In this document: in pieces, positions 1,759 through 63,362 of the stretch
Layout of the letters: each line of letters begins with the position of its first letter
How positions within the stretch are numbered: the stretch's first letter is position 1
Assembly (NCBI GenBank): GCA_965204725.1
Contig: OZ242005.1
Location: 896,001-960,000, forward strand
Direction: 5' to 3'
Length of the DNA: 64,000 nucleotides
Source: Candidatus Latescibacterota bacterium
GTDB lineage: Bacteria > Latescibacterota > UBA2968 > UBA8231
Made by a program: the position numbers and the translations under genes
The notes under the pieces: model-generated
What the model saw: only the letters and a program-made list of their open reading frames with translations
Database searches by the model: none
Told to the model about the DNA's origin: nothing

Positions 1759-4128
1759 ATGACAATCACTGGCGCGTTATGCCTCGTTATGGCGTTGGGC
1801 AGTTTGGCCTTTGGCGAGCGCGTTTCGTTTGACACCCGCGCCGCGTGGCAGGAGTGGGCGCACCCGGTCGGCGCGGTCGAACTGCAAGCGACCGGCCGCA
1901 TTCAGCCCGTGCCCGTCCGCAAAAACATCAACGCCGTGCGCAACGCTGAGCGCTTTGGCGGCGGCATCCGCCGGGTCGGCAGCAACGCCGGCGACGCCCG
2001 CCTCATCATGGACGGCGACCCGACGACGAGCTGGGCACCCGACCCGGCCGACGGCCTTGAAAACGCGTACATCGAACTCGACTTGGGCCGCTTGGTGACG
2101 GCCTCCGAGATCGTCCTCACGTTTGACGAGGCCGCGCCGCCCTTTGAATTTTTCAACATTCTGCTGTCGAGCGGCGAGAAGTTCTTTACCAACGCCTTAG
2201 TGCCTGTGGAGGGCACCCTCGGATACGGCCTGTCCAAGGGCATTGGCTTCAACGACCGCCACGAGCTCGTCCTCGACCCCCGCCAGCGCACCTTGGGCGT
2301 GAGCGCGGCCGGGTCCGACGACATTGGCGGCGGCTTTGTCGAGGGCACGGTGCGCGAGTTCAAGGAATCTTCGGGCCTCGTCCGCATCATTCGCATTGAG
2401 TTGGCCAAGTTCGTCGAGGGCGCTGGCCTAGCCGAAATCTCGGTCTCCACCATCGGCGACAACATCGCCCTCGGGATCATTGAGCGCGGCGGCAACATCG
2501 AGCTCATCACCGACTTGCAGGCCGTGCTCTCCGGCGGCGAAAACATGGTCGATGGCGATATTGTCACCAACTGGGGCATGCAGACCTACCACCAGACCCA
2601 GACCGGCTTCGACATCTTCAATCGCATCATCTTCGACTTAGGAGCCCATTACTGGATCGACCAAATCCGCATCATCGGCGAGCCGGCCGGTGCCCCGTCG
2701 CGCATTCGCAGCCGCTACGCCAACTTCTTCTGGTATCAGCTCCTCGCTTCCGACGGGTCCATCGCCCCGGACGGCACCCTGAATTTTCACGAGATCGCCT
2801 TTGTGGACGACAGCCCCCTGAACGAGACGACGATCCGCAACTTCGACCACCAATTCAGCTTGCAGAAAATCCGCTACATCAAGCACTACTTCCCGTCCTC
2901 CCGCCACGGCGGCGAGCGCACCGGCACCCACGGCACGTACCGCCTCTTTGCCCTGATTAGCGAGTTCCAGATCTACGGCGAGGGCTTTCCGGCCGAGTTG
3001 CAGCTCACCTCGCCGATCCTCGACCTCGGCCAAGCCAAGGCCCTGACCTCGGTTGAGTGGGACGCCGAAATCCCGCCCGGTACGCGCATTGAGTTGCGCA
3101 GCCGCACCGGCGGCGAAGTCGTTGAGAATGTTCACTACTTCGACAAGAAGGGCAAAGAGATCACCGAGCGGAAATGGAACAAGACGCCCAAGACCCTGCG
3201 CGGGCCGACCAAAACCACGATTTCCGTCGGCTCGGACTGGAGCGTCTGGAGCGATCCGTACGTGACGTCGGGGGCGCTGTTTAGCTCGCCCTCGCCGCGC
3301 CGCTATGTCCGGCTCGACCTGCGCCTGATTTCGGACGATCCCAATGCGGCCCCGGCGATCAACGCCCTGCACTTGAACGCGGAAAACCCCATTGCCCTCC
3401 AAACCCGCGCCGAAGTCTTTCCCAGTATCGTCGAGCCGGGCGTCAAAAAGGATTTTACGTATTTTGTCCTGCCCACCTTTGGCGGGCGCTCGCAGGGCTT
3501 TGACCGCCTGACCATGGTCGCGTCCGTGCCCGTTGATTTTACCAGTCTGAAGTTGGGCGACGAGCCGGTGGAGGCCGCAATCACCGCGGTTGCCGACGGG
3601 TTTGTCGTCGATCTACCGGCCACCGTCCGCCGCTCCGAGCTCATCGAGCTCTCGTTCAGCAGCACCATTTACCAAAACCAGACGCGCTTCGATCTCTTTC
3701 TCGGCAACAGCAACCTCGGCCAAGACGTGCGCCAACTCGTCGACCAAGGCGACGCCAAAGCCGATGTGCCGAGCGAATCCGTGTCAGTGCAACTGCCGGT
3801 CAACGACCTCCTACTCGCCAACGTAGCCCTTTCGACGCCCGTGCTAACGCCCAATGGCGATGGGGTCGGCGACGAGCTGGTCATTGAATTCGACGCGCTC
3901 AAGTTGGTGACGCCGCGCCCCGTGCGGGTCCACATCTACGACCTCGCCGGTCGCAAGGTGCGCGTCCTCGACAGCGGCGCGGGGCTGGCTCGGCGCTACC
4001 GCTTCACTTGGAACGGGCGCGACCACGCCGGGGCGCTCGTGCGGCCGGGGACCTATCTAGCCCAGATCGAAATCGCCGGCGACTCCCAGACCGAGACGGT
4101 GCAGCGGATAGTGCCGGTGGCCTACTGA
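1759..4128 (+). CDS. Secreted protein with discoidin-like domains and C-terminal FlgD-Ig/CHU_C-type domain (paralogue 2)
   Basis: 789 aa, signal-peptide-like N-terminus, RBS AAGGGAG. Motifs MDGDPTTSW...IELDLG, WSVWSDPY...SPSPRRYV, TPNGDGVGD...YDLAGRKVR...WNGRD. Confidence 0.75.
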   Translation: MTITGALCLVMALGSLAFGERVSFDTRAAWQEWAHPVGAVELQATGRIQPVPVRKNINAVRNAERFGGGIRRVGSNAGDARLIMDGDPTTSWAPDPADGLENAYIELDLGRLVTASEIVLTFDEAAPPFEFFNILLSSGEKFFTNALVPVEGTLGYGLSKGIGFNDRHELVLDPRQRTLGVSAAGSDDIGGGFVEGTVREFKESSGLVRIIRIELAKFVEGAGLAEISVSTIGDNIALGIIERGGNIELITDLQAVLSGGENMVDGDIVTNWGMQTYHQTQTGFDIFNRIIFDLGAHYWIDQIRIIGEPAGAPSRIRSRYANFFWYQLLASDGSIAPDGTLNFHEIAFVDDSPLNETTIRNFDHQFSLQKIRYIKHYFPSSRHGGERTGTHGTYRLFALISEFQIYGEGFPAELQLTSPILDLGQAKALTSVEWDAEIPPGTRIELRSRTGGEVVENVHYFDKKGKEITERKWNKTPKTLRGPTKTTISVGSDWSVWSDPYVTSGALFSSPSPRRYVRLDLRLISDDPNAAPAINALHLNAENPIALQTRAEVFPSIVEPGVKKDFTYFVLPTFGGRSQGFDRLTMVASVPVDFTSLKLGDEPVEAAITAVADGFVVDLPATVRRSELIELSFSSTIYQNQTRFDLFLGNSNLGQDVRQLVDQGDAKADVPSESVSVQLPVNDLLLANVALSTPVLTPNGDGVGDELVIEFDALKLVTPRPVRVHIYDLAGRKVRVLDSGAGLARRYRFTWNGRDHAGALVRPGTYLAQIEIAGDSQTETVQRIVPVAY

Positions 4129-4168
4129 GGAAGCCGCTTTTGCCACCTTACAGCAAAGAGGAACAGCG

Positions 4169-5953
4169 ATGACCCGTGCCGCACTCGCATTAGCCTGCCT
4201 AGCGATGGGATACAACACGCCAGCCGCGGCCGCGGAACGGCTCAAAATAGGCGGCGATGGGCTGGAGTGGGAGAGCAACTCGCTCGTGTTCAACGCCCTC
4301 GAAGTCACCGCCGAGGGGGGGCTCTCGCCGTTGGAGGCCGACCCGGAGGAAAACATCCTGCCGCGCATCAAGGAGCTCGGCGGCAGCGCGACCACCTCGG
4401 TGCGCACGGCCGCGGCCCGCTCCAACCAGATACTCAACGAACTCATCGACGGCTCCCACACCACGGGTTGGCGCGTGTACACCAACCCCAACGGGGCCGA
4501 ACTCGAAGTCGATATGGGGGCGATTTTCGTCTTGCAACGCATCCGCCTATTGCGCGGCGTCCTCAACGACGACGAGCGCTCGTTGCGCGGCTACGAGTTC
4601 TACGTCAACGACGGCGATTCGCTCAATTTCGTCGGCGGCAATCCCGTGTACGCGCTCATCGCCCAAGACCGCTCGCACGGCCTGCCCGAGCTGGACTTGA
4701 GCTTCCCGCCGACGCAGGTGCGCTTTTTTAGGCTGCGCAGCACGGGCGAACGCGGCTTCCAAATGGGCGACCTCGAAGTATTCGGCGTGGGCGTCACGCC
4801 CTTTGCCCAGTACATATCCCAAGTCATCGACCTAGGGGAAGCGGCCAACTTCGGGCCGGTTGACGTGTACAGCCGCCTCTACGGCGCGGCCCAAGCGCAA
4901 TTCAGCACCAAGACCGGCTTTGTCGCCACGGACTCGCTCTACTTCCGCCAGACGGGCATTCCCGGGGAATTGGCGGAAGTGGCCCTAGCGGATTTCGATC
5001 GCACGCTCGACCCCTCGTATGCCGGCGTCATTCTCGAAAACGACCGCGACTGGAGCGCGTGGTCCCCGCCCTACGCCGAGTCGGTCCGCTCGTCGATCCA
5101 TTCGCCCGACAACCGGCGCTACCTCCAGTTCCAGTTCAAGCTCCTGTCGAATAGCTTGCTCGACAAAGCCGTCATCGACTCGGTGGTCTTCAACTACACG
5201 GTGCCGGCGCTGGCCGATTCAGTAGTCGCCGAAATCAGCCCGACGACCGCGACCCTCGGGCAGGAGAACGAGTTTACCTATCACCTGCGCTCGGTCGTCT
5301 CGGGCGGCCATCGCGGCTTTGACACCGCCATTATCCACACTCCGTTTGCGGCCCGCGCCACGGGCGTCCGCGTCGATGGCGTGGAGATCGACAACTTCAC
5401 ATCGGAGTTCGCTTCGGGCCGCTTACAGGTCCGCTTCCCGGACGCCCGCATTACCCGCAGTGGGCAAGAAGTCGCCGTGCGCTTCGTCTGCTTGGTAACC
5501 GTCTCGGGCACGGAGTTTCGCGGCGAGGTCGCCGACAGCCAGTCCGATGCGTTTCCGCAGCGCGTCGCTTTTGGCGACGCGGCCGAGGAAGCCGCCGACA
5601 ACACGCTCGTCGTCAGCGCCCGCATCGACGAAGAGCTCTTCACCGGCGTCGCGTTCTCGTCCGCCGTGATCACACCCAATGGCGACCAGATCAACGACCG
5701 GATCACCCTCGACTACATCCTGCTCAAGGCGACCCACGAGGTCGCAGTCGAGGTCGTCGCGTACGACTTGAGCGGTCGGCCGGTGCATCGCCTGTACCAA
5801 GCCCGCGATCGCTCCGGCCCCAACCAAGTGAGTTGGGATGGCCGCGACGACGCCGGGGCCGTGGTGCCGCCGGGTATGTACTTGCTTCGTCTCGAGGCCG
5901 CCACCGACGCCGGCATCGCCACGCAAATGCGGAGCATTGCCGTAGTATATTGA
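4169..5953 (+). CDS. Secreted protein with discoidin-like and C-terminal FlgD-Ig/CHU_C-type domain (paralogue 3)
   Basis: 594 aa, signal peptide (AAA-ER). Same motif series as the first two paralogues (IDLGEAANFG, WSAWSPPY, TPNGDQIND, WDGRD). Confidence 0.75.
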   Translation: MTRAALALACLAMGYNTPAAAAERLKIGGDGLEWESNSLVFNALEVTAEGGLSPLEADPEENILPRIKELGGSATTSVRTAAARSNQILNELIDGSHTTGWRVYTNPNGAELEVDMGAIFVLQRIRLLRGVLNDDERSLRGYEFYVNDGDSLNFVGGNPVYALIAQDRSHGLPELDLSFPPTQVRFFRLRSTGERGFQMGDLEVFGVGVTPFAQYISQVIDLGEAANFGPVDVYSRLYGAAQAQFSTKTGFVATDSLYFRQTGIPGELAEVALADFDRTLDPSYAGVILENDRDWSAWSPPYAESVRSSIHSPDNRRYLQFQFKLLSNSLLDKAVIDSVVFNYTVPALADSVVAEISPTTATLGQENEFTYHLRSVVSGGHRGFDTAIIHTPFAARATGVRVDGVEIDNFTSEFASGRLQVRFPDARITRSGQEVAVRFVCLVTVSGTEFRGEVADSQSDAFPQRVAFGDAAEEAADNTLVVSARIDEELFTGVAFSSAVITPNGDQINDRITLDYILLKATHEVAVEVVAYDLSGRPVHRLYQARDRSGPNQVSWDGRDDAGAVVPPGMYLLRLEAATDAGIATQMRSIAVVY

Positions 5954-5994
5954 TGATCAAAGACCGCTAAAAAACGCTCTAAGGGAGGGTTGTT

Positions 5995-8610
5995 ATGCGC
6001 AAAGTTATGTTCTGGGGGTTGTCTCTGCTGGTTTTAGCCGTTGCGGCGTCCAGCGTCCAAGCGGCGACCCCGGGGCGCGAGCGCGGCGCCACTTCGCAAG
6101 TTCGGATCGAGGGCTTCGACCCGCTGATCCCGACTCTGCGCAAGTGGTACGTGCCGCAAGATCTCTACTACATCTATCATTGGGGAGGCTACAAGTACAC
6201 CAACTACGCCAAGGAACCCTATCAGCGCTACGTTTCCACGCAGCTAGAGGGCACGGGCCAGTACGACATCTTCGGCAACTGGATCACCCGCGGCTGGCGC
6301 ATCTACGAGTGGCGTCAGCAGCAGCCGCTGGCCTTCGGCAGCACGGTCTTCAAAGACGGTCGCTTTAATTCTTGGTTCCAAAACCTAATCGTCGCCGCCG
6401 ACTCCAAGGGCCAGTACTATTCCTCCCTGACCATCGGCGACCGCATCCGCACGACCCTGACCCCGCTGACCTTCAGCCGAGCGCGCTTCAACGGCGTCCA
6501 GTGGGACTTTGCGTCCGACAAGTACGAGGCCACCGTGCTGCTGTCGCGCGTCAATCAGCCCGTGCAGGCCGTCCAAGGGTCCAACCGAGTGCAAGACACG
6601 GACTTCACCAATTTCATTGGCTTGCGCGGCACCGCCCAAGTCGGCGACTTCATGGGCTTAGGGCTAACGTACGTCAATACGAACTTCGGCTCGGCGAGCA
6701 GCAATTTCTCGGAAAACTCGCGCGCCGGCTTGCTGACCAGCAGCCAAAATTCGGGTAATGTCACCGAAATCGTCGTCCGCATCTCCGACGACTCGCCCGG
6801 CGACGCCTCGGGCGCGCTGTTCTTTTCGGCGCGGATGATCGTCGATGGGCAAGAGACCTCGGTCAATCCCACCATTGAGGGCGGCCGCCAGCGCGAAGGC
6901 TTCCTCGAAGCCCTTGAAGAGGCCCCGATCCTCCTCCGCTACCGAGTGCCCGACCCGCTCGTGGTGCAAAAGGTCCGCTTTGCCATGGTGCTCTCCAACG
7001 ACTACCGAGTCGAGATCACCTCCAACTTGCAGACGAACATCAACGGCCAGCCCATTTTCTTGCTGGTCACCCGCGCCGAAGGCAATGTGCGCGACAACAC
7101 CAACCAGCGCGTCGTCCGCTTTGACTATGGGCTGCCCTCGGCCAACCAAATCGCCAGCGTGGACTTGGTCATCGAGGATATATGGGGCTTGGAGGTGCGC
7201 GGCGAATTTGCGCGCAACACCCAGTTTCAGCGCTATCCCAACATCAACATCCAGAAACTGAGCAACCTCAAAAAGAGCGACCGCACGGCCGATGCTTGGT
7301 TCGTCAACGCCACCCGCCGCGCCGGCCGCTACTTTGGCTACGGCGAGGTGTTCAGCATGGACTACGACTACACCACGCGCGGGTACATCACCGACCAAAA
7401 CGATGTCGTGGATTACGAAAACCAGCGGCAGAATTGGTTCGAGTACATCGACGACAACGACGACCAAGACCAACTCGTCGATTGGCCGCGCTTTGGCGGC
7501 AGCGGCGGCGACAACGCCGTCTTCCCCGGCCTCGACGAAAACAACGACCTGCTCTCAGACTTCAACGAAAACTCCAACCTCACCCCAGACTACGAAGAGC
7601 CGTTCTTGCGCCACTACATCGATCCGCCCGATTTCCTCTTTGGCGTCGATATGAACCACAACACCGTGGTCGATCGCTTTGAAAACGACGACGAGGCCGA
7701 CTATCCCTACCGCAAGGGGCATCGCGGCTGGAACGTGTACGGAGGGGCCGAGATTTATCCGGGAATCAATATCACCGTAGGCCGCAATCGCGAATGGCTG
7801 ATCGCCGGCCAAGAGCGGTCAACCGCCGTGTACGGGTTGCTCAGCACTGTGCGAGATGTGGCGCGGACGGGCAAGTTCGAGGCCTTCTACATGCTCAAGT
7901 TCGTGGAAGACGACATTGCCGACAATCTACTGCAATGGGTACAGCGGCCCGGCTCCATTGGCGGCTTGCAGCCTTTTGACGACCCCCTAATCACCCAAAA
8001 CACCATCGTCAATCAGGGCTTTGTCGGCTACAAGTACACCCGCGGCAATTTGACCTTTGTCAACAAGTTTCGCTTCGATCATTTCAAGCAGCGCGACGAA
8101 GCGGCCACCCACCTGCGCGACAGCGCGTTCTTAGGCGTGATCAACAAGGCGGACTATCCCTTTTCCATCGGGCGCAACGTCACCTTGATCCCGCGCTGGA
8201 AAAACATGTGGCGCAAGCGCACCCAGCCGCGCACCGTCCAGCTCGAAATCAACGAGTTGAGCGAAATTTTCTCCCTGTCCGCCGTATTTCCCGTGCTGAC
8301 GAGAAGCCGCATCGAGGTCGGGGTGGAAGCCATTATTTTTCGCAATGCCGAGGCGATTCCAGACCCGCTGCCGCCCGAATACATCGACGACTTCATCGGC
8401 CGGGTGTTCACCGTGCAATACACCAATCGGGTGCAGTATCTAGGATACAGCGTCACCTCCAACGTTGGCTTTCAGCTCAACGACATCAACTTCGCCAATC
8501 TCGCCGACCAAGACGTGAGCAATACCATTGCCTTCATCGAGATCTATGTTGGGCAAGAAGAGGAGCGCTTGGGTGGTCGGCCCGCCGAAAGAAGGGGATG
8601 GAGCTTCTAA
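5995..8610 (+). CDS. Large exported protein, probable outer-membrane beta-barrel with Asp-rich Ca-binding-like loops
   Basis: 871 aa, signal peptide, RBS AGGGAGG, aromatic-rich amphipathic strands, terminal Phe. Loops DDNDDQD, DENNDLLSD, DMNHNTVVD. Confidence 0.55.
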   Translation: MRKVMFWGLSLLVLAVAASSVQAATPGRERGATSQVRIEGFDPLIPTLRKWYVPQDLYYIYHWGGYKYTNYAKEPYQRYVSTQLEGTGQYDIFGNWITRGWRIYEWRQQQPLAFGSTVFKDGRFNSWFQNLIVAADSKGQYYSSLTIGDRIRTTLTPLTFSRARFNGVQWDFASDKYEATVLLSRVNQPVQAVQGSNRVQDTDFTNFIGLRGTAQVGDFMGLGLTYVNTNFGSASSNFSENSRAGLLTSSQNSGNVTEIVVRISDDSPGDASGALFFSARMIVDGQETSVNPTIEGGRQREGFLEALEEAPILLRYRVPDPLVVQKVRFAMVLSNDYRVEITSNLQTNINGQPIFLLVTRAEGNVRDNTNQRVVRFDYGLPSANQIASVDLVIEDIWGLEVRGEFARNTQFQRYPNINIQKLSNLKKSDRTADAWFVNATRRAGRYFGYGEVFSMDYDYTTRGYITDQNDVVDYENQRQNWFEYIDDNDDQDQLVDWPRFGGSGGDNAVFPGLDENNDLLSDFNENSNLTPDYEEPFLRHYIDPPDFLFGVDMNHNTVVDRFENDDEADYPYRKGHRGWNVYGGAEIYPGINITVGRNREWLIAGQERSTAVYGLLSTVRDVARTGKFEAFYMLKFVEDDIADNLLQWVQRPGSIGGLQPFDDPLITQNTIVNQGFVGYKYTRGNLTFVNKFRFDHFKQRDEAATHLRDSAFLGVINKADYPFSIGRNVTLIPRWKNMWRKRTQPRTVQLEINELSEIFSLSAVFPVLTRSRIEVGVEAIIFRNAEAIPDPLPPEYIDDFIGRVFTVQYTNRVQYLGYSVTSNVGFQLNDINFANLADQDVSNTIAFIEIYVGQEEERLGGRPAERRGWSF

Positions 8611-56768: not shown

Positions 56769-57941
56769 TTATCGAAAAATGTGCCCCACGTCGGTAAAAT
56801 GCCGCACGCTGGCATGGGACAGTTCCGGGGTGAGATGGCCGGCGTAGATGACGTAGCCTTTCTGGGTGGAGGCCGCGATCTGCTGGAACTGCGCGATCCC
56901 TTTGGCAAACTCTGGATGAAACGTCATGGCCGATTTGATTTCAATGGGGATTAACTGCCTGTTTTGCCGGAACAACAAATCGACTTCGTGGCCTTTGTTG
57001 TCGCGGTAAAAGTAGAGTTCAGGTTCTTTTCCCGCGTTGAGTCTGGCTTTCAAGGCTTCGATGACGATCATGTTTTCAAAGAGATTGCCGATCAGTGGAT
57101 CCCGGGCCGCCAGCGCGGGCGATTCAATGCCGAGCAAGTAGGACGCGAGCCCGACCTCGGTAAAATAGATTTTGGGCGATTTGACGATGCGTTTGCCAAA
57201 GTTTTCAAAATAGGGCTTCAACCTGAAAACGGTGTGCGATGCTTCGAGTACCGAGAGCCATTCTTTGAGCGTGGTGCTCGACACCCCCACGTCGTTGGCC
57301 AGCGAACTCAGATTCAAAACTTGGCCGACGCGGCCGGCGAGCAGGCGCGTGAAATGCTCAAAATCGGTCAGGCTCCTCAGATGGATCATTTGCCTAACGT
57401 CGCGCTCGATATAGGTTTGACAGTAATTTCGGTACAGGCGAGTCGGATTGACTTTTTCGCTGTACAGGCGGGGCATAAAGCCCTGATAGATCCATTCGTC
57501 GCGCGTGTGTTTGATGCGGGTCGCTTTGAGTTCGGCTATCGACAAGGGGAGCAGGCGCAAGAGGGCCGTGCGTCCGGCGAGGGATTGAGCAACGGTTTCT
57601 TGCAGACGCAACTGGTGGTGGCCGGTGAGAATGTATTGCCCGCGTTGCTGGCTGCTGTCCGCGAGGACTTGGATGGTTGAGAGCAGTTCGGGTACGCGCT
57701 GAATTTCGTCGATAATAACGGGCGGGGGAAATTGCGAGAAGAACGCGTGGGGATCGCTCATCGCCAGCCGGCGCACATCAGGTGCTTCGAGGTTTGCATA
57801 AGCGTAATTTGGAAACTGCATCCGCGCCAACGTGGTTTTTCCCGCTTGCCGTGGACCGATGATGGTCACCACGGGAAATTCGCTTGCCGTCGCGACCAAT
57901 TCTCTGGCAATTTGTCGCAAAATCACGGTTTTAAGCTCCAT
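56769..57941 (-). CDS. AAA_14 ATPase with DUF4143 domain
   Basis: Start ATG 57941; GPRQAGKTT, IIDEIQRVP, KSPKIYF, EVDL...IEIKS. Confidence 0.85.
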   Translation of the reverse strand: MELKTVILRQIARELVATASEFPVVTIIGPRQAGKTTLARMQFPNYAYANLEAPDVRRLAMSDPHAFFSQFPPPVIIDEIQRVPELLSTIQVLADSSQQRGQYILTGHHQLRLQETVAQSLAGRTALLRLLPLSIAELKATRIKHTRDEWIYQGFMPRLYSEKVNPTRLYRNYCQTYIERDVRQMIHLRSLTDFEHFTRLLAGRVGQVLNLSSLANDVGVSSTTLKEWLSVLEASHTVFRLKPYFENFGKRIVKSPKIYFTEVGLASYLLGIESPALAARDPLIGNLFENMIVIEALKARLNAGKEPELYFYRDNKGHEVDLLFRQNRQLIPIEIKSAMTFHPEFAKGIAQFQQIAASTQKGYVIYAGHLTPELSHASVRHFTDVGHIFR

Positions 57942-57975
57942 TCGCGTTGATGCTACGCGAGGAGAAAATAAAAGG

Positions 57976-58016
57976 ATCGGTACAGATCTCAAGTTACACT
58001 TGAAATTTGTACCGAT
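57976..58016. repeat. 18-bp imperfect inverted repeat upstream of the AAA_14 gene
   Basis: ATCGGTACAGATCTCAAG-ttaca-CTTGAAATTTGTACCGAT, 2 mismatches. Confidence 0.7.
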
Positions 58017-58071
58017 TTTCAGGCATACCAGTTGCCGCGCAACTTGGAAGTTGATGGCCGCGAACCCGTCG

Positions 58072-58112
58072 TTTGCTTGACAAATAAAGCAAATGCTCTA
58101 CATTCTAAGCAT
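58072..58112 (+). promoter_or_regulatory. Sigma70-like promoter of the pAgo operon overlapped by two TGCT-N10-AGCA palindromes
   Basis: TTGACA 58077-82 and TACATT 58099-104 (16 bp spacer). Palindromes at 58074-58091 and 58094-58111. RBS GGAGG at 58128. Confidence 0.65.
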
Positions 58113-58142
58113 ATTAGTTGAAAGGCCGGAGGTCATGTGAGC

Positions 58143-58487
58143 ATGAGTCACGAAGAGCAACTCGGTTCCTACCTCAAACGCGCTCGGAATACTGCGGGTC
58201 TGACGCTGCGGGCGGTTGAAGGGGAGACCGGTATATCTAACGGATACCTTAGCCAACTCGAGAGTGGCCAAGTGCGGCGTCCATCGCCGATGAACTTGCA
58301 CAAGCTGAGCGAACTCTATCGGCTACCCTATGCTGAAGTGATGGAAGCAGCAGGGTATCCTATACCTTCGACTCAATACAGCAACGAAGAACAGCGGTTC
58401 TTCGCGAGGCTTGGGGAGACTTCTAATGAAGAGAAAGAGGCACTGCTGGAGTATTTGGAGTTCATGCGAACTCGGAGAAAGCGGTAA
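58143..58487 (+). CDS. XRE-family HTH transcriptional regulator
   Basis: LGSYLKRAR..GLTLRAV..GISNGYLSQLESG..PS; start ATG 58143 or GTG 58137. Confidence 0.9.
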   Translation: MSHEEQLGSYLKRARNTAGLTLRAVEGETGISNGYLSQLESGQVRRPSPMNLHKLSELYRLPYAEVMEAAGYPIPSTQYSNEEQRFFARLGETSNEEKEALLEYLEFMRTRRKR

Positions 58488-58493
58488 CACATA

Positions 58494-59435
58494 ATGAGGT
58501 GGTCAGTGTCGAAGGCAAAGCAGTTCCAACGTTGTCAACGCCAGTGGTACTACAAGGAGATCGTCGGACGCCACTCTGCACCGGCGGGCAGTACTCGGCG
58601 TGAAGTCTATCTCCTCGGATTGCTGAAAAGTATCAGCCAGTGGCGCGGAGATATAGTCGATAACGTCCTCACTAGGGCCTTTCTCACTTGGCACAAGCAC
58701 CAGGTACGGCTCGATCCCGAAAAGATAATCTTCAATGCACGACGACAGTTTGATGAGCAGCTTGCCGTTGCAAGAGAGCATCACCTGCACAAGCCGGGTC
58801 TCACTCCATCGAAGTGGGAAAATTTCGTCGCATTCAGATGCATGGAATACGACAAGTCCATCCCGCAAGATGAACTGGATGCGGCTTGGCAAGAGATCGA
58901 ACAGGCGATCCGGAATCTATTCGAGATGCGCCCCGTTGCTGAGGCTATGCAGGGTACCAATGCGCTGGTAGCGCAACGCTCGTTGCAGTTCCAGCACTCG
59001 GACATGAACGTAGTAGCCAAGCCCGATTTGGTGGTCTTCTCCAAAGAAAGGCCACCCGTGATCATCGACTGGAAGGTGCATGCTTTCGGTGTTCAAGAGG
59101 CTTGGTTACAGCTTGGCATCTATGCCCTTGCTCTTTCACGTGCGAAACCGCACAAGGATTTTCCCCAAGATTGCTGCTCGTGGGCACCTACCGACGTTAA
59201 ACTCCTCGAAGTGCAATTGCTCAAGCAGGATTTAAGGGAATACCAGCTTTCCAAGAGGGATGTTACCCGTCTGGAAAACCATATCGCCACGACAGCGTAT
59301 GAGATGCTGTCTGCTGTCGGAACCGTGCGACCGAAATATGAGGACTTGATCCCCGAAGACTTCACTGTGACGCGCTATCCGACTACGTGCCAACAGTGTT
59401 CATACAAACGCGTTTGCTGGGAGGGAGAGGCATGA
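58494..59435 (+). CDS. Cas4/AddB-like PD-(D/E)XK nuclease with a putative Fe-S cluster
   Basis: C14 plus C299/C302/C308; KPDL...IIDWK...QLGIYAL RecB-type motifs. Confidence 0.85.
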   Translation: MRWSVSKAKQFQRCQRQWYYKEIVGRHSAPAGSTRREVYLLGLLKSISQWRGDIVDNVLTRAFLTWHKHQVRLDPEKIIFNARRQFDEQLAVAREHHLHKPGLTPSKWENFVAFRCMEYDKSIPQDELDAAWQEIEQAIRNLFEMRPVAEAMQGTNALVAQRSLQFQHSDMNVVAKPDLVVFSKERPPVIIDWKVHAFGVQEAWLQLGIYALALSRAKPHKDFPQDCCSWAPTDVKLLEVQLLKQDLREYQLSKRDVTRLENHIATTAYEMLSAVGTVRPKYEDLIPEDFTVTRYPTTCQQCSYKRVCWEGEA

Positions 59436-61813
59436 GCATGCTCGAAACCAACATCTTCGCCATCGAGAATCTGGATGCGCTGAAAACGGACTACGTTCTT
59501 TACAGAATTCGAGGTCTAACGAGGGGAGACAACGAGTATTTCCAGAACAAGGACGAGATCGCGAGAAAGCTAAGCTATGACCTCCAGAGGCCGGCACTCG
59601 TGATCGAAAGAAACGGCCACCCGTACCTCGTACTGCCCGCTGACACGCCTCCCCCGCCGCAGCCATTCTCACTTGTACGTGTGCAGGTGTACCTCGACAA
59701 ACAGAAGGAGTCGCTCACACTCGACTATGCGAAGCGGAATCATGAGACCGACGATATCTGCCTTCGCTTTCTCAACTTCTTCGCAGTCCAAGGCAGGTAT
59801 CGCAATGACAAGCGTTTGTGGCAACCGCGGTCCGGTCAGCCCTTCTTTGAGTACAAACCAGTCAAGACGATCAGAGGAATCGATGTCTTCCAGGGTTTCT
59901 CCGCCCGAGCGGTCATCACGCCCGACAATGGGATTGGCATTTGCCTCGATCTGCGCACGAAGTTTGTCGCGAGCAAGCCCCTTGACGCTAGACTGAAGCG
60001 TGACGGGTTCAGGCCATATCGCGGACAGCACTTCATCTATCGGTTCAAGGGCTGGTATGGGGTGCAGCTACAGGACTACTGCGATCTGAACGCCTCTGAA
60101 GCTCACATCGATACCGGAAACTGCTCAGTTTACAAGTACCTCAGACGCGAGTCCCCCAAGCCGCTACCTCAGCAGCTTGCCAATCTCCCTCGGGACGCAG
60201 CACTCGCCTACTACCAGACAAACCGCGGAAACCGTGTATACGCGAGTGTGGGCCTTTGCCATCTCATCTATGACACGCGGCATCCTGAGGTTCAGCGCCG
60301 GCAGGGGATGATGACCCCACAGCCCCACGAACGGGATCGCAAGATCCAAGAATATGCAGCCAAGTATCTACAAGGATTGCAGCTCGGACGCACTCGGCTT
60401 GAAGTGTCGCGTACGCCCATAACGGCACCCCGCAAGGTGTTCCAAGCACCAGATATCGAGTTTGGGGGTGAACACGTGCTCTCCGTCCGCCGGACGGCGG
60501 GTGCTCACATAGCGACTATGGATACACTGGGAAAAAAGAAGCAGCGGTTGCTTATGCGTGAGGACGCAGGCTTCTTCGTCAAGCGTCTCCTTGGTCCGCA
60601 GTACCTGATTATGCCTGAGAGCGTTTACAAGACATGGGGGAAACAGTATATCAAAAATTTAAAGCAGACGGTTGAACGGCTCTACGGTCCAGCCGAGCGA
60701 GACGAAGTACTGCCAGACGTACCCGTGTACGACCCGAAGGTAATCACCTACAACGACTGTGACTCAGGTCATACGTATGTCGAGCAGGGACGGGCAATCT
60801 TGGATGCCGCCGAGAAACATCGAGTGCGTGGTGGATACGGGTTGATAATGATTCATGACGCCTCGGACCGCGAGGTCAGGCAGGAGGACCAACTCGCCGC
60901 TATGCTCTCCCAGCAGTTTTGGGAGCAGCGTGATATGCGCATTACCGTAAACCATACGAAGACCGGGAGCGAATGCTACAGTCCGGTGAATGGTCAACAT
61001 GGGGCGTACGTTGTGAACCCGAAAAAGCGGGGCAAGCTCAATGGCTACCTACGCAATGTGGCGTTAAGTAAGATCCTTCTGAACAATGAAATGTGGCCGT
61101 TTGTCCTAGCCACCCCACTGCATGCGGACGTGACGATCGGCCTCGATGTGAAGCGCAACACAGTGGGCCTGACAGTCGTGAGCGATGGCGGACGCAGCAT
61201 CGCGACCTTATGTCGCAGGTCCAGTCAAAAGGAGAAGCTGACCCGCCGTCAGATCGAGACGCTCCTGACCGAACTGTTGCGCCATACAGCCGAGAAGCAG
61301 GCCGTCAAGGAGATTAAGGAGATCGTCATTCACCGCGACGGGCGGAGCTTCCAGTCCGAGATTGACGGTGCAATCAACGCGAAGAAGACCCTCCAAGCGG
61401 AGGGCCTCCTTCCTTCTGACGTGCGCATCACGATCTTGGACGTAAGCAAGACAGCCATGACTCAAGTGCGCCTATTCGACGTGAAGCGCACAAACGGTCG
61501 CTTACTACGGGTAGAGAACCCACAGAACGGCACGTACGTCTTTCTAGGAAATCAGGATGCGTACTTATGCTCAACAGGGCGAGAGTTCGGGCACTCCGGC
61601 ACCACCCAGATGTTGCATGTGCGGTATGAACTGCCTGGGCTGCCGTTTGAGCAGGCACTTGAAGACCTGTACTACCTAACGACGCTGACGTGGAGCAAAC
61701 CTGACGACTGCTCGCGCTACCCAGTGACGATGAAGCTGACCGACAGGTGGTTGTGGCAGGATGCAACGGAGTACAACCAAGACGTGCTCGTATATGGCGT
61801 CGAGGAGGGTTGA
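59432..61813 (+). CDS. ago: Long prokaryotic Argonaute, predicted catalytically active (DEDD)
   Basis: 793 aa from ATG 59432 (ATGA overlap). PIWI motifs IGLD572V, QKE601KL, IVIHRD636G, LTTLTW...RYPVTMKLTD771. Confidence 0.9.
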   Translation: MSMLETNIFAIENLDALKTDYVLYRIRGLTRGDNEYFQNKDEIARKLSYDLQRPALVIERNGHPYLVLPADTPPPPQPFSLVRVQVYLDKQKESLTLDYAKRNHETDDICLRFLNFFAVQGRYRNDKRLWQPRSGQPFFEYKPVKTIRGIDVFQGFSARAVITPDNGIGICLDLRTKFVASKPLDARLKRDGFRPYRGQHFIYRFKGWYGVQLQDYCDLNASEAHIDTGNCSVYKYLRRESPKPLPQQLANLPRDAALAYYQTNRGNRVYASVGLCHLIYDTRHPEVQRRQGMMTPQPHERDRKIQEYAAKYLQGLQLGRTRLEVSRTPITAPRKVFQAPDIEFGGEHVLSVRRTAGAHIATMDTLGKKKQRLLMREDAGFFVKRLLGPQYLIMPESVYKTWGKQYIKNLKQTVERLYGPAERDEVLPDVPVYDPKVITYNDCDSGHTYVEQGRAILDAAEKHRVRGGYGLIMIHDASDREVRQEDQLAAMLSQQFWEQRDMRITVNHTKTGSECYSPVNGQHGAYVVNPKKRGKLNGYLRNVALSKILLNNEMWPFVLATPLHADVTIGLDVKRNTVGLTVVSDGGRSIATLCRRSSQKEKLTRRQIETLLTELLRHTAEKQAVKEIKEIVIHRDGRSFQSEIDGAINAKKTLQAEGLLPSDVRITILDVSKTAMTQVRLFDVKRTNGRLLRVENPQNGTYVFLGNQDAYLCSTGREFGHSGTTQMLHVRYELPGLPFEQALEDLYYLTTLTWSKPDDCSRYPVTMKLTDRWLWQDATEYNQDVLVYGVEEG

Positions 61814-61817
61814 AATC

Positions 61818-62177
61818 ATGAGCGACCGGAGTTTACAATCAGGCTACTACAACACGATCAGCTACCTCGCCGAGCTTCTAGATGAGGCCTTGATGCAGAT
61901 CAAGCTCGCACGGGGCGGCGCACCCTCGTCAGAGGTCGAAAAGGTCTCCAAGATGTTGGAAGTAGCGGCTAGCGAGGAGTGCCGCGATCTCTCGACAGCA
62001 TTCCTGCGCTTGATCCTTCGAGATGAGCTAGGAGAGCAACAGCAGGCTTGGCAAGAACTAAGCGTACGACTTGGGCAGGGAGTGTGCGACGAGCATGACG
62101 TAGAGATGATGGAGCGGATTGCTGAAGTCGTGGACACCGAGCGGGCGTCGGCGTTTCGCAAAATGAGAGGGTTCTAG
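61818..62177 (+). CDS. Small acidic, predicted alpha-helical hypothetical protein
   Basis: 119 aa from ATG 61818 with RBS GAGGAGG, 4 bp after the ago stop; no recognisable motif. Confidence 0.7.
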   Translation: MSDRSLQSGYYNTISYLAELLDEALMQIKLARGGAPSSEVEKVSKMLEVAASEECRDLSTAFLRLILRDELGEQQQAWQELSVRLGQGVCDEHDVEMMERIAEVVDTERASAFRKMRGF

Positions 62178-63308
62178 GTGTTTGAGGAGTATATCAATGG
62201 AACTCTCGGCGAGTTGGAACGACGGGCACGAGTACTGCGGGCAAAAATTCCGCGAGACCTGCCAACCTACTATGCAACGCTCGTGAAGTCGTGCAACGAA
62301 CGGCTTAAAGAACTATTGTTTGCCCTCCGCGACCTGCGCGATAATCCTGCGTGGCAGGATGAGAAATTTCGCCCAGAGCGCCAGCGGCGTCTGCGCAGGA
62401 TCGTGACGGCTCTCGACAGGCTGGAGTCTGGCGGCATCACGGCCCTCTGTCGTGCGAACGAGGACGACCATTACTTCAACGGTCTGCTCGAACGCCTTCG
62501 ACGGGAAATCAAGTATCCGGGAGAACTGCCCACGGTCTCCTCGCTCTCGCAGCGTTACTTCTATGTCGATACGGATCTCAACCTCATGAGTGTACCGTTG
62601 GCCGAGCGACATTTTCTTCTCCATTTGCCGGATCTTTACCATGAACTAGCGCACCCACTCTTGGTAGCACGCGACGATTCGGTCATCGAGCCCCTACAGG
62701 ATAGGATGTTGGAGTCGGCGGCGGTGGCGATGGAGCACTTTCACACGATAGCACACGAAAGGGAAGGTGGGCGCACTCCAGAGCAGGAACGGAATCGGCT
62801 GCGGACATGGGAGTTCTACTGGGGCAAGTACTGGATCTTCGAGTTCTACTGCGACCTGTTCGCCACCTACACCCTAGGACCAGCCTTCGCGTGGTCACAC
62901 GTGCATCTGAGTGCCAAGCGGGGCGTGAACCCGTACGACTATTTGATGGAGCAGCATCCGGCCGACGCTGCGAGGATGTCCGTGCTCCTCATCGGCCTGC
63001 GCGAGATAGACTATGATGAAGAGGCGGAGGCAATCGCTAGGGTGTGGCAGTCGGTGATCGGCTCGTCGAGCTATAAGCCCCCGTCCGATTTCAGGACGTG
63101 CTATCCCCAAGATATGCTCGAAAAAATAGCCAAGCAGGGCCTTGAAGGAGTTAAAGCGATCGGATGCCGCATCGCACACGCTAAGTGCGATGACGAAATC
63201 CACACGCTCCTGAACGAGGCTTGGCAACGGTTCTGGGATAACCCGAGCGAGTACGCCGCTTGGGAGGATCAGAGGACGAGGAAGTTATCTAAATCGCGTC
63301 TGGCTTAG
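62178..63308 (+). CDS. HExxH zinc metallopeptidase-like protein (gluzincin, M48/M56-like motifs)
   Basis: GTG immediately after the previous stop; YH155ELAH159, E222FYCD226LFA, H260PADAAR. Confidence 0.7.
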   Translation: MFEEYINGTLGELERRARVLRAKIPRDLPTYYATLVKSCNERLKELLFALRDLRDNPAWQDEKFRPERQRRLRRIVTALDRLESGGITALCRANEDDHYFNGLLERLRREIKYPGELPTVSSLSQRYFYVDTDLNLMSVPLAERHFLLHLPDLYHELAHPLLVARDDSVIEPLQDRMLESAAVAMEHFHTIAHEREGGRTPEQERNRLRTWEFYWGKYWIFEFYCDLFATYTLGPAFAWSHVHLSAKRGVNPYDYLMEQHPADAARMSVLLIGLREIDYDEEAEAIARVWQSVIGSSSYKPPSDFRTCYPQDMLEKIAKQGLEGVKAIGCRIAHAKCDDEIHTLLNEAWQRFWDNPSEYAAWEDQRTRKLSKSRLA

Positions 63309-63362
63309 ACTGGATCCCATACTTTTCAACTATATAGGAGCCTTTAGGGGCGGCGGTTGACT

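Follow-up and report, generated by a model that had tools for sequence, protein, structure and literature searches.

A Five-Gene Argonaute Operon from a Latescibacterota Genome Carries a Conserved and Apparently Undescribed Pair of a Small Protein and an HExxH Protein

We describe a five-gene Argonaute operon located in a 64,000-nucleotide stretch of DNA from a Candidatus Latescibacterota bacterium (GenBank assembly GCA_965204725.1, contig OZ242005.1, positions 896,001 to 960,000; the whole stretch is hereafter called the window). In order, its genes encode an XRE-family regulator, a Cas4-like nuclease, a long prokaryotic Argonaute (pAgo), a small helical protein and a protein with an HExxH motif (Table 1). 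The locus adds a further member to an operon family known from the literature and is not a new system, and its last two genes make up a real conserved module representing a new protein family that is apparently undescribed. There is strong support for the view that nuclease, pAgo, small protein and HExxH protein form a core that is inherited as a unit, in several phyla and in both groups of RNA-cutting pAgos. According to structural modelling, the cleft of the HExxH protein is the probable binding site of the small protein.

Results

A four-gene core is shared by both groups of RNA-cutting Argonautes

Relatives of the last gene were collected with an alignment of the HExxH family, which retrieved 80 metagenome loci, including several near-identical duplicates (L027/L074, L039/L042, L047/L049, L052/L053 and L062/L063). 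A locus was considered eligible for counting if it contained enough upstream DNA. All 73 loci eligible for this comparison carry the small-protein gene immediately ahead of the HExxH gene (71 full and 2 partial copies), and the junction between the two genes is conserved at 0 to 4 bp. A pAgo gene lies upstream of the pair in 45 of the 46 loci eligible for that comparison, with a remnant in the other, and the nuclease gene is present in 37 of 38, with one partial copy. Among 168 genomes of the phylum the pAgo model matched in 11, and an HExxH gene lies downstream in 11 of 11. Searches of 72,556 plasmids with the pAgo and with the HExxH protein returned the same 5 records. A preliminary description of this DNA, made from the sequence alone, had looked to homologous loci to show whether the two downstream genes belong beside this kind of pAgo; in metagenomes, phylum genomes and plasmids (5 of 5) they are conserved there.

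Genes for DNA-guided, RNA-cutting (D-R) pAgos are reported to follow a gene for a PD-(D/E)XK nuclease, a distant relative of Cas4 (PMC9360449). According to the same work the accompanying regulator is a helix-turn-helix (HTH) protein for the PliAgo group, and PnyAgo-group operons have a sigma70 factor instead. Both arrangements were represented among the plasmids. Runella slithyformis plasmid pRUNSL03 carries genes for an HTH protein, a PD-(D/E)XK nuclease, WP_013921749 and hypothetical proteins of 125 and 378 residues. WP_013921749 is the accession cited for RslAgo (PMC9360449), and profile matches assign the two hypothetical proteins to the small and HExxH families, respectively. The same five-gene order occurs on a Rhizobium plasmid. 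Plasmids from Emticicia and Spirosoma, which belong to the sigma-factor group, carry a sigma70 gene and a gene for a 180-residue hypothetical protein without a family match, followed by the nuclease, pAgo, small and HExxH genes. All four core genes are also present on an Aphanizomenonaceae (cyanobacterial) plasmid, for which no regulator is annotated.

Distance matrices computed for 41 loci were highly correlated between core genes (r = 0.89-0.95 overall; r = 0.95 for pAgo versus HExxH and r = 0.93 for small versus HExxH). The HExxH protein and the pAgo diverge at the same rate, with mean distances of 0.555 and 0.533, respectively. Because conserved gene order alone would give such a correlation, it is evidence for co-inheritance and not for interaction.

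The Argonaute is best read as a member of the PliAgo group

The pAgo matches the PADLOC model pAgo_II (PDLC02382) at 6e-260. Its closest solved structure is PliAgo (7R8F-K; phmmer 6e-130, residues 3-787), and comparison with the RslAgo gene by tblastn gave 34% identity (1e-129). Hand mapping on the alignment places the catalytic tetrad D572/E601/D636/D771 on PliAgo D563/E592/D626/D762. In the MID pocket, H508 corresponds to PliAgo H498 and Y539 to Y530, while two other MID positions are substituted (PliAgo R467 to D476, and S501 to T511); K768 and K574 are the equivalents of PliAgo K759 and K565. The DEDD, His and Tyr positions are invariant across 43 relatives.

In vitro, PliAgo and RslAgo have been shown to cleave RNA with the help of DNA guides and to leave DNA uncut, and their MID pocket is unusual in that only the second His and the fourth Tyr of the RHSY motif are absolutely conserved (PMC9360449; Lisitskaya 2022, Nat Commun). 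The window pAgo is best read from its sequence as a PliAgo-group member and a predicted DNA-guided RNA endonuclease, and this reading corrects an earlier assumption of DNA targeting. The preliminary description had correctly recognized the intact tetrad and had taken the protein for a generic long pAgo acting as an anti-plasmid and anti-phage DNA nuclease, a function that gives way here to DNA-guided RNA cutting, as predicted from homology to the PliAgo group (PMC9360449).

The adjacent nuclease retains Cas4-like features

The nuclease matches the PADLOC model Aga_Cas4-like_Nuc (PDLC02406) at 2.8e-108 and Pfam PDDEXK_1 at 3e-18. C14, C299, C302, C308, D178 and D192-x-K194 are invariant across 38 relatives, in agreement with the four cysteines and RecB-type motifs noted at the outset. 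The hallmarks of ACE-type nucleases, a D-DxK motif together with one N-terminal and three C-terminal cysteines, are present, and sequence comparison strongly supports an intact active site and intact iron-sulfur cysteines. At 313 residues the protein equals the mean length given for ACE2 in PMC12094033, which is a comparison of length alone. A sequence search for solved chains at E <= 0.01 returned none, from a PDB set whose content was unchecked for the ACE1 chain; the methods of PMC12094033 include ACE1 crystallography. Analogy with ACE1 (PMC12094033) gives it a probable role in supplying or trimming DNA guides.

The last gene encodes a probable zinc hydrolase or peptidase of an unnamed family

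Three motifs characterize the HExxH protein: H155-E-L-A-H159, E222-x3-D226 and H260-P-x4-R266. All three had been recognized from the start, and residues H155, E156, H159, E222, C225, D226, H260, P261 and R266 proved to be invariant in 39 relatives; the motif residues are also invariant in 11 distant relatives. In an AlphaFold2 (AF2) model with a predicted local distance difference test (pLDDT) score of 92.8, an N-terminal helical bundle leads into three short strands (residues 119-138), the HExxH helix (151-162) and a set of long helices. The long helices of the model bear the invariant E222, C225 and D226, with E222, the candidate third metal ligand of a zincin, in helix 202-233, as well as H260-P-x4-R266. 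On the strength of these motifs the protein is probably a zinc hydrolase or peptidase. The narrower name of gluzincin peptidase, used in the preliminary description, derives from the motifs alone and finds no support from family or fold.

Neither the HExxH protein nor the small protein matched anything in Pfam, NCBIfam or PADLOC, even at E <= 10. For the M78/ImmA/IrrE family (PF06114) in particular, the window protein had no match at that threshold and none was obtained for its relatives (0 of 39). PADLOC, which had been proposed as a check on the locus, gave a divided answer: its models cover the pAgo and the Cas4-like nuclease but not the small and HExxH proteins. A profile search of PDB sequences with the HExxH protein produced weak, coiled-coil-like matches in its N-terminal helices, among them YmcA/RicA (E 0.065), and these were not accepted as evidence.

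The HExxH family includes at least 683 homologues; those with names are all designated "hypothetical", and none has a recorded Pfam domain. A profile of the core found 1101 cluster representatives at E <= 1e-3, the best 150 of which were listed. Fourteen fused proteins of 711-799 residues (P0121-P0134) join the HExxH family domain to a C-terminal half of approximately 400 residues for which the Pfam matches were non-significant (M78, E 0.12). Two of the fused forms were read, P0121 and P0125, and both contain a second motif, HEFLH, in the C-terminal half.

The small protein is helical. An alignment of 37 sequences revealed a conserved N-terminus, MSxxGLYSGLY, in which M1 is invariant and S2 nearly so, and a conserved C-terminal helix, LExLAxxLExERAxxxAxMRG. 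The ESM Atlas provided no usable match for this protein.

The small protein is predicted to occupy the HExxH cleft

Prediction of a complex between the small and HExxH proteins gave an ipSAE of 0.76 in 3 of 3 runs, compared with 0.00 in all 3 controls. The partner had a pLDDT of 80-82, and the runs agreed on no fewer than 90% of contacts. In calibration, 58 of 80 solved complexes and 2 of 110 mismatched pairs attained the score mark, figures that apply only roughly to custom alignments such as those employed here. The modelled N-terminal residues 1-10 of the small protein run along HExxH strand 126-133 and lie against E156, H159, E222, C225 and H260, so that E222, C225 and H260 from the long helices contact the same bound tail as the two residues of the HExxH motif. 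The helices of the small protein pack on HExxH helix 63-77. The small protein is thus predicted to sit where, and as, a substrate or a pseudo-substrate inhibitor would.

A conserved operator overlaps the promoter of the operon

The first gene encodes a 114-residue protein with matches to Pfam HTH_31 (7e-13) and HTH_3 (8e-11). Its ATG start at 58143 is favored by a ribosome-binding site (GGAGG), and an alternative GTG at 58137 would extend the product to 116 residues. A weak full-length match to PADLOC capH (2.3e-8) is at the level of a generic HTH, and RmrA and HTH_VI models match as well.

The single promoter assigned to the operon in the preliminary description, TTGACA-16-TACATT at 58077-58104, fits 10 of 12 positions. 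A promoter scan observed 3 promoter-like sites where 3.0 were expected by chance, and a site alone consequently means little; this one is credited because it is conserved in relatives and not for its scan score. An inverted repeat, TTTGCTT-N8-AAGCAAA (58072-58093), overlaps the promoter. Upstream regions were compared for 34 relatives, from loci whose proteins are just 40-55% identical, and in most of them a related repeat, TGCTTGA-N-TCAAGCA, lies over the TTGACA -35 box; in about one third of the 34 regions a search for exact matches did not find a repeat of this type. An upstream XRE gene was recorded for 33 of the 36 metagenome loci eligible for this count. Its product is probably an autorepressor of the operon, a role that fits because the operator over the -35 box recurs in relatives.

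Two further observations concern transcription. In several relatives, including L047, L056 and L075, the -10 box is only ~7-10 bases ahead of the XRE start codon, which suggests leaderless or near-leaderless transcripts. A candidate internal promoter at the junction of the pAgo and small-protein genes (TTGAAA-18-TACAAT, 61810-61839, plus strand) was rejected, as sites of the scan were not above chance.

The pair is found after loss of the Argonaute and without it

The HExxH family is present in 17 of the 168 phylum genomes. Six contain intact operons, and in two others the nuclease and/or pAgo gene is interrupted by 1.2-1.6 kb of extra DNA. Another six have lost the nuclease and pAgo genes at no fewer than four different junctions, with the XRE, small and HExxH genes all retained at full length. 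In one genome the HExxH gene is decayed, and two have a divergent form only. The six losses (loci L134, L135, L107, L108, L136 and L137, in genomes G139, G143, G054, G056, G046 and G047, respectively) left short remnants behind. Insertions of 1.2-1.6 kb in the nuclease and/or pAgo gene were seen at loci L102, L106 and L109 (genomes G059, G083 and G053), and the insert at L109 encodes a DDE_Tnp_1_4 transposase. Contigs from one public sequencing run lack the whole operon and join 58015 to 63358, although this match was made at 85% likeness and is to be taken with care.

For the genes retained in loss genomes, the ratio of nonsynonymous to synonymous substitution rates (dN/dS) is 0.10-0.17, equal to that in intact operons. 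We rejected the low ratio as proof of selection after the loss, since the deletions are undatable.

The divergent form consists of an open reading frame (ORF) of 148-150 residues and an HExxH-like ORF of approximately 371-378 residues, joined by a 0-bp junction. It occurs in a pAgo operon broken by a DDE transposase, and divergent pairs also stand alone. The genome from which the window derives contains one (150 and 371 residues; L132:9282-10850, corresponding to G000:C1, ~3,106,281-3,107,849) just downstream of Type IIG restriction-modification and AIPR/AbiU genes, with no pAgo nearby, and genome G082 contains another beside a STAND NTPase (L133:7873-9450). All motif residues are invariant in these stand-alone pairs too.

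Layout and surroundings of the operon

The five genes span 58143-63308 on the plus strand and are tightly coupled behind a single promoter/operator. The XRE and nuclease genes are 6 bp apart, the nuclease and pAgo genes overlap in ATGA, 4 bp separate the pAgo gene from the small-protein gene, and the HExxH gene follows at 0 bp. The gene calls are the same as those on which the co-oriented, coupled operon was first proposed. Features are listed in Table 1.

Table 1. Features of the Argonaute operon and its upstream flank, in window coordinates.
Feature	Coordinates	Strand	Basis or details
Promoter with overlapping operator	58072..58110	+	-35 TTGACA 58077-58082, -10 TACATT 58099-58104
XRE-family HTH regulator, 114 aa	58143..58487	+	Pfam HTH_31/HTH_3
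Argonaute-associated Cas4-like PD-(D/E)XK nuclease, 313 aa	58494..59435	+	PADLOC PDLC02406, Pfam PDDEXK_1
Long pAgo, PliAgo group (predicted), 793 aa	59432..61813	+	PADLOC pAgo_II PDLC02382, PliAgo 7R8F-K
Small helical protein, 119 aa, unnamed family	61818..62177	+	Family alignment, complex prediction
HExxH protein, 376 aa, unnamed family, GTG start	62178..63308	+	Alignments, AF2 model
AAA_14/DUF4143 ATPase gene, upstream flank	56769-57992	-	PADLOC candidate system PDC-S01 at 2e-96
Helicase, 1010 aa	53722-56754	-	DEAD, Helicase_C, HRQ1 winged-helix and MrfA Zn-binding domains

The expectation that the operon is lower in GC than host genes was borne out. GC content is 0.552 in the operon and 0.605 in the window, and GC at third codon positions (GC3) is 0.57-0.68 in the operon genes compared with 0.80 in the helicase gene; low GC is also found in both flanking defense genes. 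The operon lies in a defense island. Its flanks, described from the beginning as an AAA_14 gene and a restriction-enzyme gene, are the AAA_14/DUF4143 gene on the upstream side and, on the downstream side when read beyond the window end, a Type IIG-like restriction-modification enzyme of 1035 residues (N6_Mtase, Eco57I, MmeI_Mtase). The helicase has in addition a weak C-terminal RNase_H-like match and BrxHI- and SngC-like PADLOC matches. In one public sequencing run, whose contigs were matched at 85% likeness, 2468 extra letters lie between 58019 and 58032.

In Runella and Spirosoma, a multiubiquitin/ThiF-family adenylyltransferase gene set adjoins the pAgo operon (L110:8441-10620 and L141:1-1554, respectively), and DUF6527 is also annotated in the Runella set. 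At metagenome locus L017, which has no XRE gene, the ORFs directly upstream of the nuclease (4078-6252) look similar to that set by eye.

Discussion

The preliminary description had put this operon forward as a candidate new defense system and knew of no described pAgo system that also carries a small protein and a peptidase. The first claim falls, as the operon family is already published and RslAgo is found in the same five-gene order. The second stands in part: the RslAgo operon has both genes, yet the available text of PMC9360449 names only the nuclease and the regulator in these operons, and it leaves the biological role of the pAgo open. A search of the available text of PMC9360449, PMC12094033, 10.1101/366930, PMC10772731 and PMC12642450, which covered neither figures nor supplements, found no mention of the last two genes. 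In the text of PMC9360449 the phrase "unknown function" is absent and the lone match to "hypothetical" is unrelated; in the portion of PMC12094033 that was searched there is no mention of a peptidase, and matches to "protease" refer to reagents.

Our tentative proposal, which we rate a little short of an even call, is that the HExxH protein is a latent metalloprotease that is blocked by its cognate pseudo-substrate inhibitor or first substrate, and that the two proteins constitute a toxin-antitoxin-like output arm. The XRE protein would repress the operon from the operator that overlaps its own promoter. By analogy with ACE1, the Cas4-like nuclease would supply or trim DNA guides, and the pAgo, again by analogy, would cut invader transcripts. 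The small and HExxH proteins would form a heterodimer in which, as modelled, the N-terminal tail of the small protein lies in the HExxH cleft. On infection a pAgo signal or the disappearance of the partner would free the protease, whose target would be a host protein or a regulatory one; its peptidase activity is suggested by motifs only. Two adjacent, coupled genes whose products are predicted from the model to bind each other are in keeping with a toxin-antitoxin-like arrangement. Beyond predicted cleft binding, the model does not decide whether the pair is an effector or a regulator.

A more ambitious version of this proposal assigns the D-R pAgo the role of sensor. The output would be a new metalloprotease, plugged by the N-terminus of its partner and freed on recognition of invader RNA to cut a regulator or host protein, which would make the operon a convergent counterpart of Craspase built on an Argonaute and its last two genes a cassette that other defense islands have recruited. 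We consider this version doubtful.

Several findings weigh against a latent metalloprotease as the output of the operon. When 39 members of the HExxH family were scanned for known families, only scattered chance matches were obtained and 0 of 39 matched a peptidase family. Foldseek searches of PDB and BFVD with the full HExxH model returned nothing below E 0.15, a search of PDB with the core folded separately (residues 112-300) returned nothing below E 0.48, and a profile of the protein against PDB sequences found nothing relevant. In the ESM Atlas, high scores went to unnamed clusters only; the nearest named families were Peptidase_U49 and M48 at 0.78, a likeness that is a lead and not a match. 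The complex score expresses the confidence of a model and is not a measurement, and it does not distinguish an inhibitor from a substrate. In these data the only link between the pAgo and the pair is gene order and co-inheritance, and a catalytically active pAgo has no obvious need of an effector. In addition, the HExxH gene is dispensable in some strains: it is decayed in two loci, and contigs from two public runs, matched at 85% likeness, lack the HExxH gene only and join 62163 to 63339. Finally, the nuclease and pAgo deletions may be recent, in which case the low dN/dS of the retained genes says little.

The main rival, which we think unlikely, is a regulator-cleaving switch in which the HExxH protein, modulated by the small protein, cuts the XRE protein or, in the sigma-factor group, a putative anti-sigma protein upon a danger signal and thereby turns the operon on. 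CBASS and Deinococcus provide documented cases in which an XRE repressor is paired with an M78 metallopeptidase (10.1101/2022.04.27.489752, PMC12828697), but the HExxH family is unlike M78/ImmA/IrrE. The XRE protein has a conserved operator at the promoter and a weak full-length match to capH, although that match is largely a generic HTH signal. XRE, small and HExxH genes are kept together after deletion of the nuclease and pAgo genes, and the sigma70 factor and 180-residue protein that replace XRE in the second group could be a pair controlled by proteolysis. Against this, the pair occurs without XRE in 3 of 36 eligible loci (L017, for example), on the Aphanizomenonaceae plasmid and in the stand-alone pairs, and the complex model places the small protein and not a regulator in the cleft.

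It is also conceivable, but improbable, that the pair is a hitchhiker, an independent toxin-antitoxin or abortive-infection cassette that stabilizes the island and has no mechanistic link to the Argonaute. Divergent pairs standing alone in other defense islands, survival of the pair after pAgo deletion and the inhibitor-like binding predicted here would all fit such a cassette, and loss of HExxH alone is tolerated, as it would be for a toxin gene. Unchanged position and coupling, together with co-divergence, in both pAgo groups and in at least 6 phyla and 41 loci are not what a hitchhiker would lead one to expect, and neither is its presence behind every pAgo of this kind examined. Least probable in our estimation is a service to the pAgo itself, whether in maturation or loading of the pAgo or nuclease, in stripping protein off guide precursors or as a non-proteolytic, metal-dependent adaptor: strict translational coupling right behind the pAgo, an HExxH protein that diverges at the rate of the pAgo and the failure to detect a peptidase fold are consistent with it, but neither member of the pair is needed for the in vitro activity of purified PliAgo and RslAgo (PMC9360449), and the pair outlasts pAgo loss and also occurs without any pAgo.

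The work on DNA-guided RNA-cutting Argonautes reported in PMC9360449 addressed the pAgo alone, in vitro. Both D-R pAgo groups share a four-gene core that includes an unnamed protease-like family of some 1100 clusters and a partner predicted to bind in its cleft. This core points to a missing half of the D-R pAgo system and makes its role in cells directly testable. RslAgo and its four neighbors on the known Runella plasmid offer an existing strain as a starting point, and a structure of the HExxH protein, whose family has neither a Pfam nor a Foldseek match, would be informative in itself.

Among known systems, the operon is closest to those of PliAgo and RslAgo (PMC9360449), with which it has in common homology of the pAgo, the DEDD tetrad, the MID His and Tyr, the equivalent of K759, and the upstream nuclease and HTH regulator. 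With the RslAgo operon on pRUNSL03 the identity of architecture is complete, the same five genes being present in the same order. APACE1 (PMC12094033; 2025, Mol Cell) likewise combines an active long pAgo with a Cas4-family nuclease that is encoded just upstream and has the D-DxK motif and 1+3 cysteines, but the APACE1 pAgos differ in that they cut DNA and are cyanobacterial.

A functional parallel is provided by the Type III-E Craspase, in which RNA-guided recognition of RNA turns on a protease that acts on Csx30 and a sigma-factor circuit (PMC9729208, PMC9825189). Craspase combines an RNA-targeting guided nuclease with a protease-like protein and a small partner, and it involves a sigma factor, as does the second pAgo group. 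The proteins are unrelated, however (Cas7-11 and the caspase-like TPR-CHAT protein versus pAgo and HExxH), and control of the HExxH protein by the pAgo would be an analogy.

CapH/CapP, DdrO/IrrE and ImmR/ImmA resemble the operon in bringing an XRE repressor and an HExxH enzyme together in one defense locus. The window enzyme differs from theirs in not belonging to M78, and its gene is separated from the XRE gene by three others. Among relatives of the window operon, two plasmids have a sigma factor in place of the XRE regulator and other loci have no regulator, and the pairing is consequently not obligatory.

A final comparison concerns the mode of binding. Serralysin inhibitors and TIMPs are protein inhibitors of zinc proteases that act through an N-terminal trunk. 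The small protein has no sequence or fold relation to either, but like them it is predicted to place its extreme N-terminus in the cleft of a metalloenzyme, near the HExxH motif.

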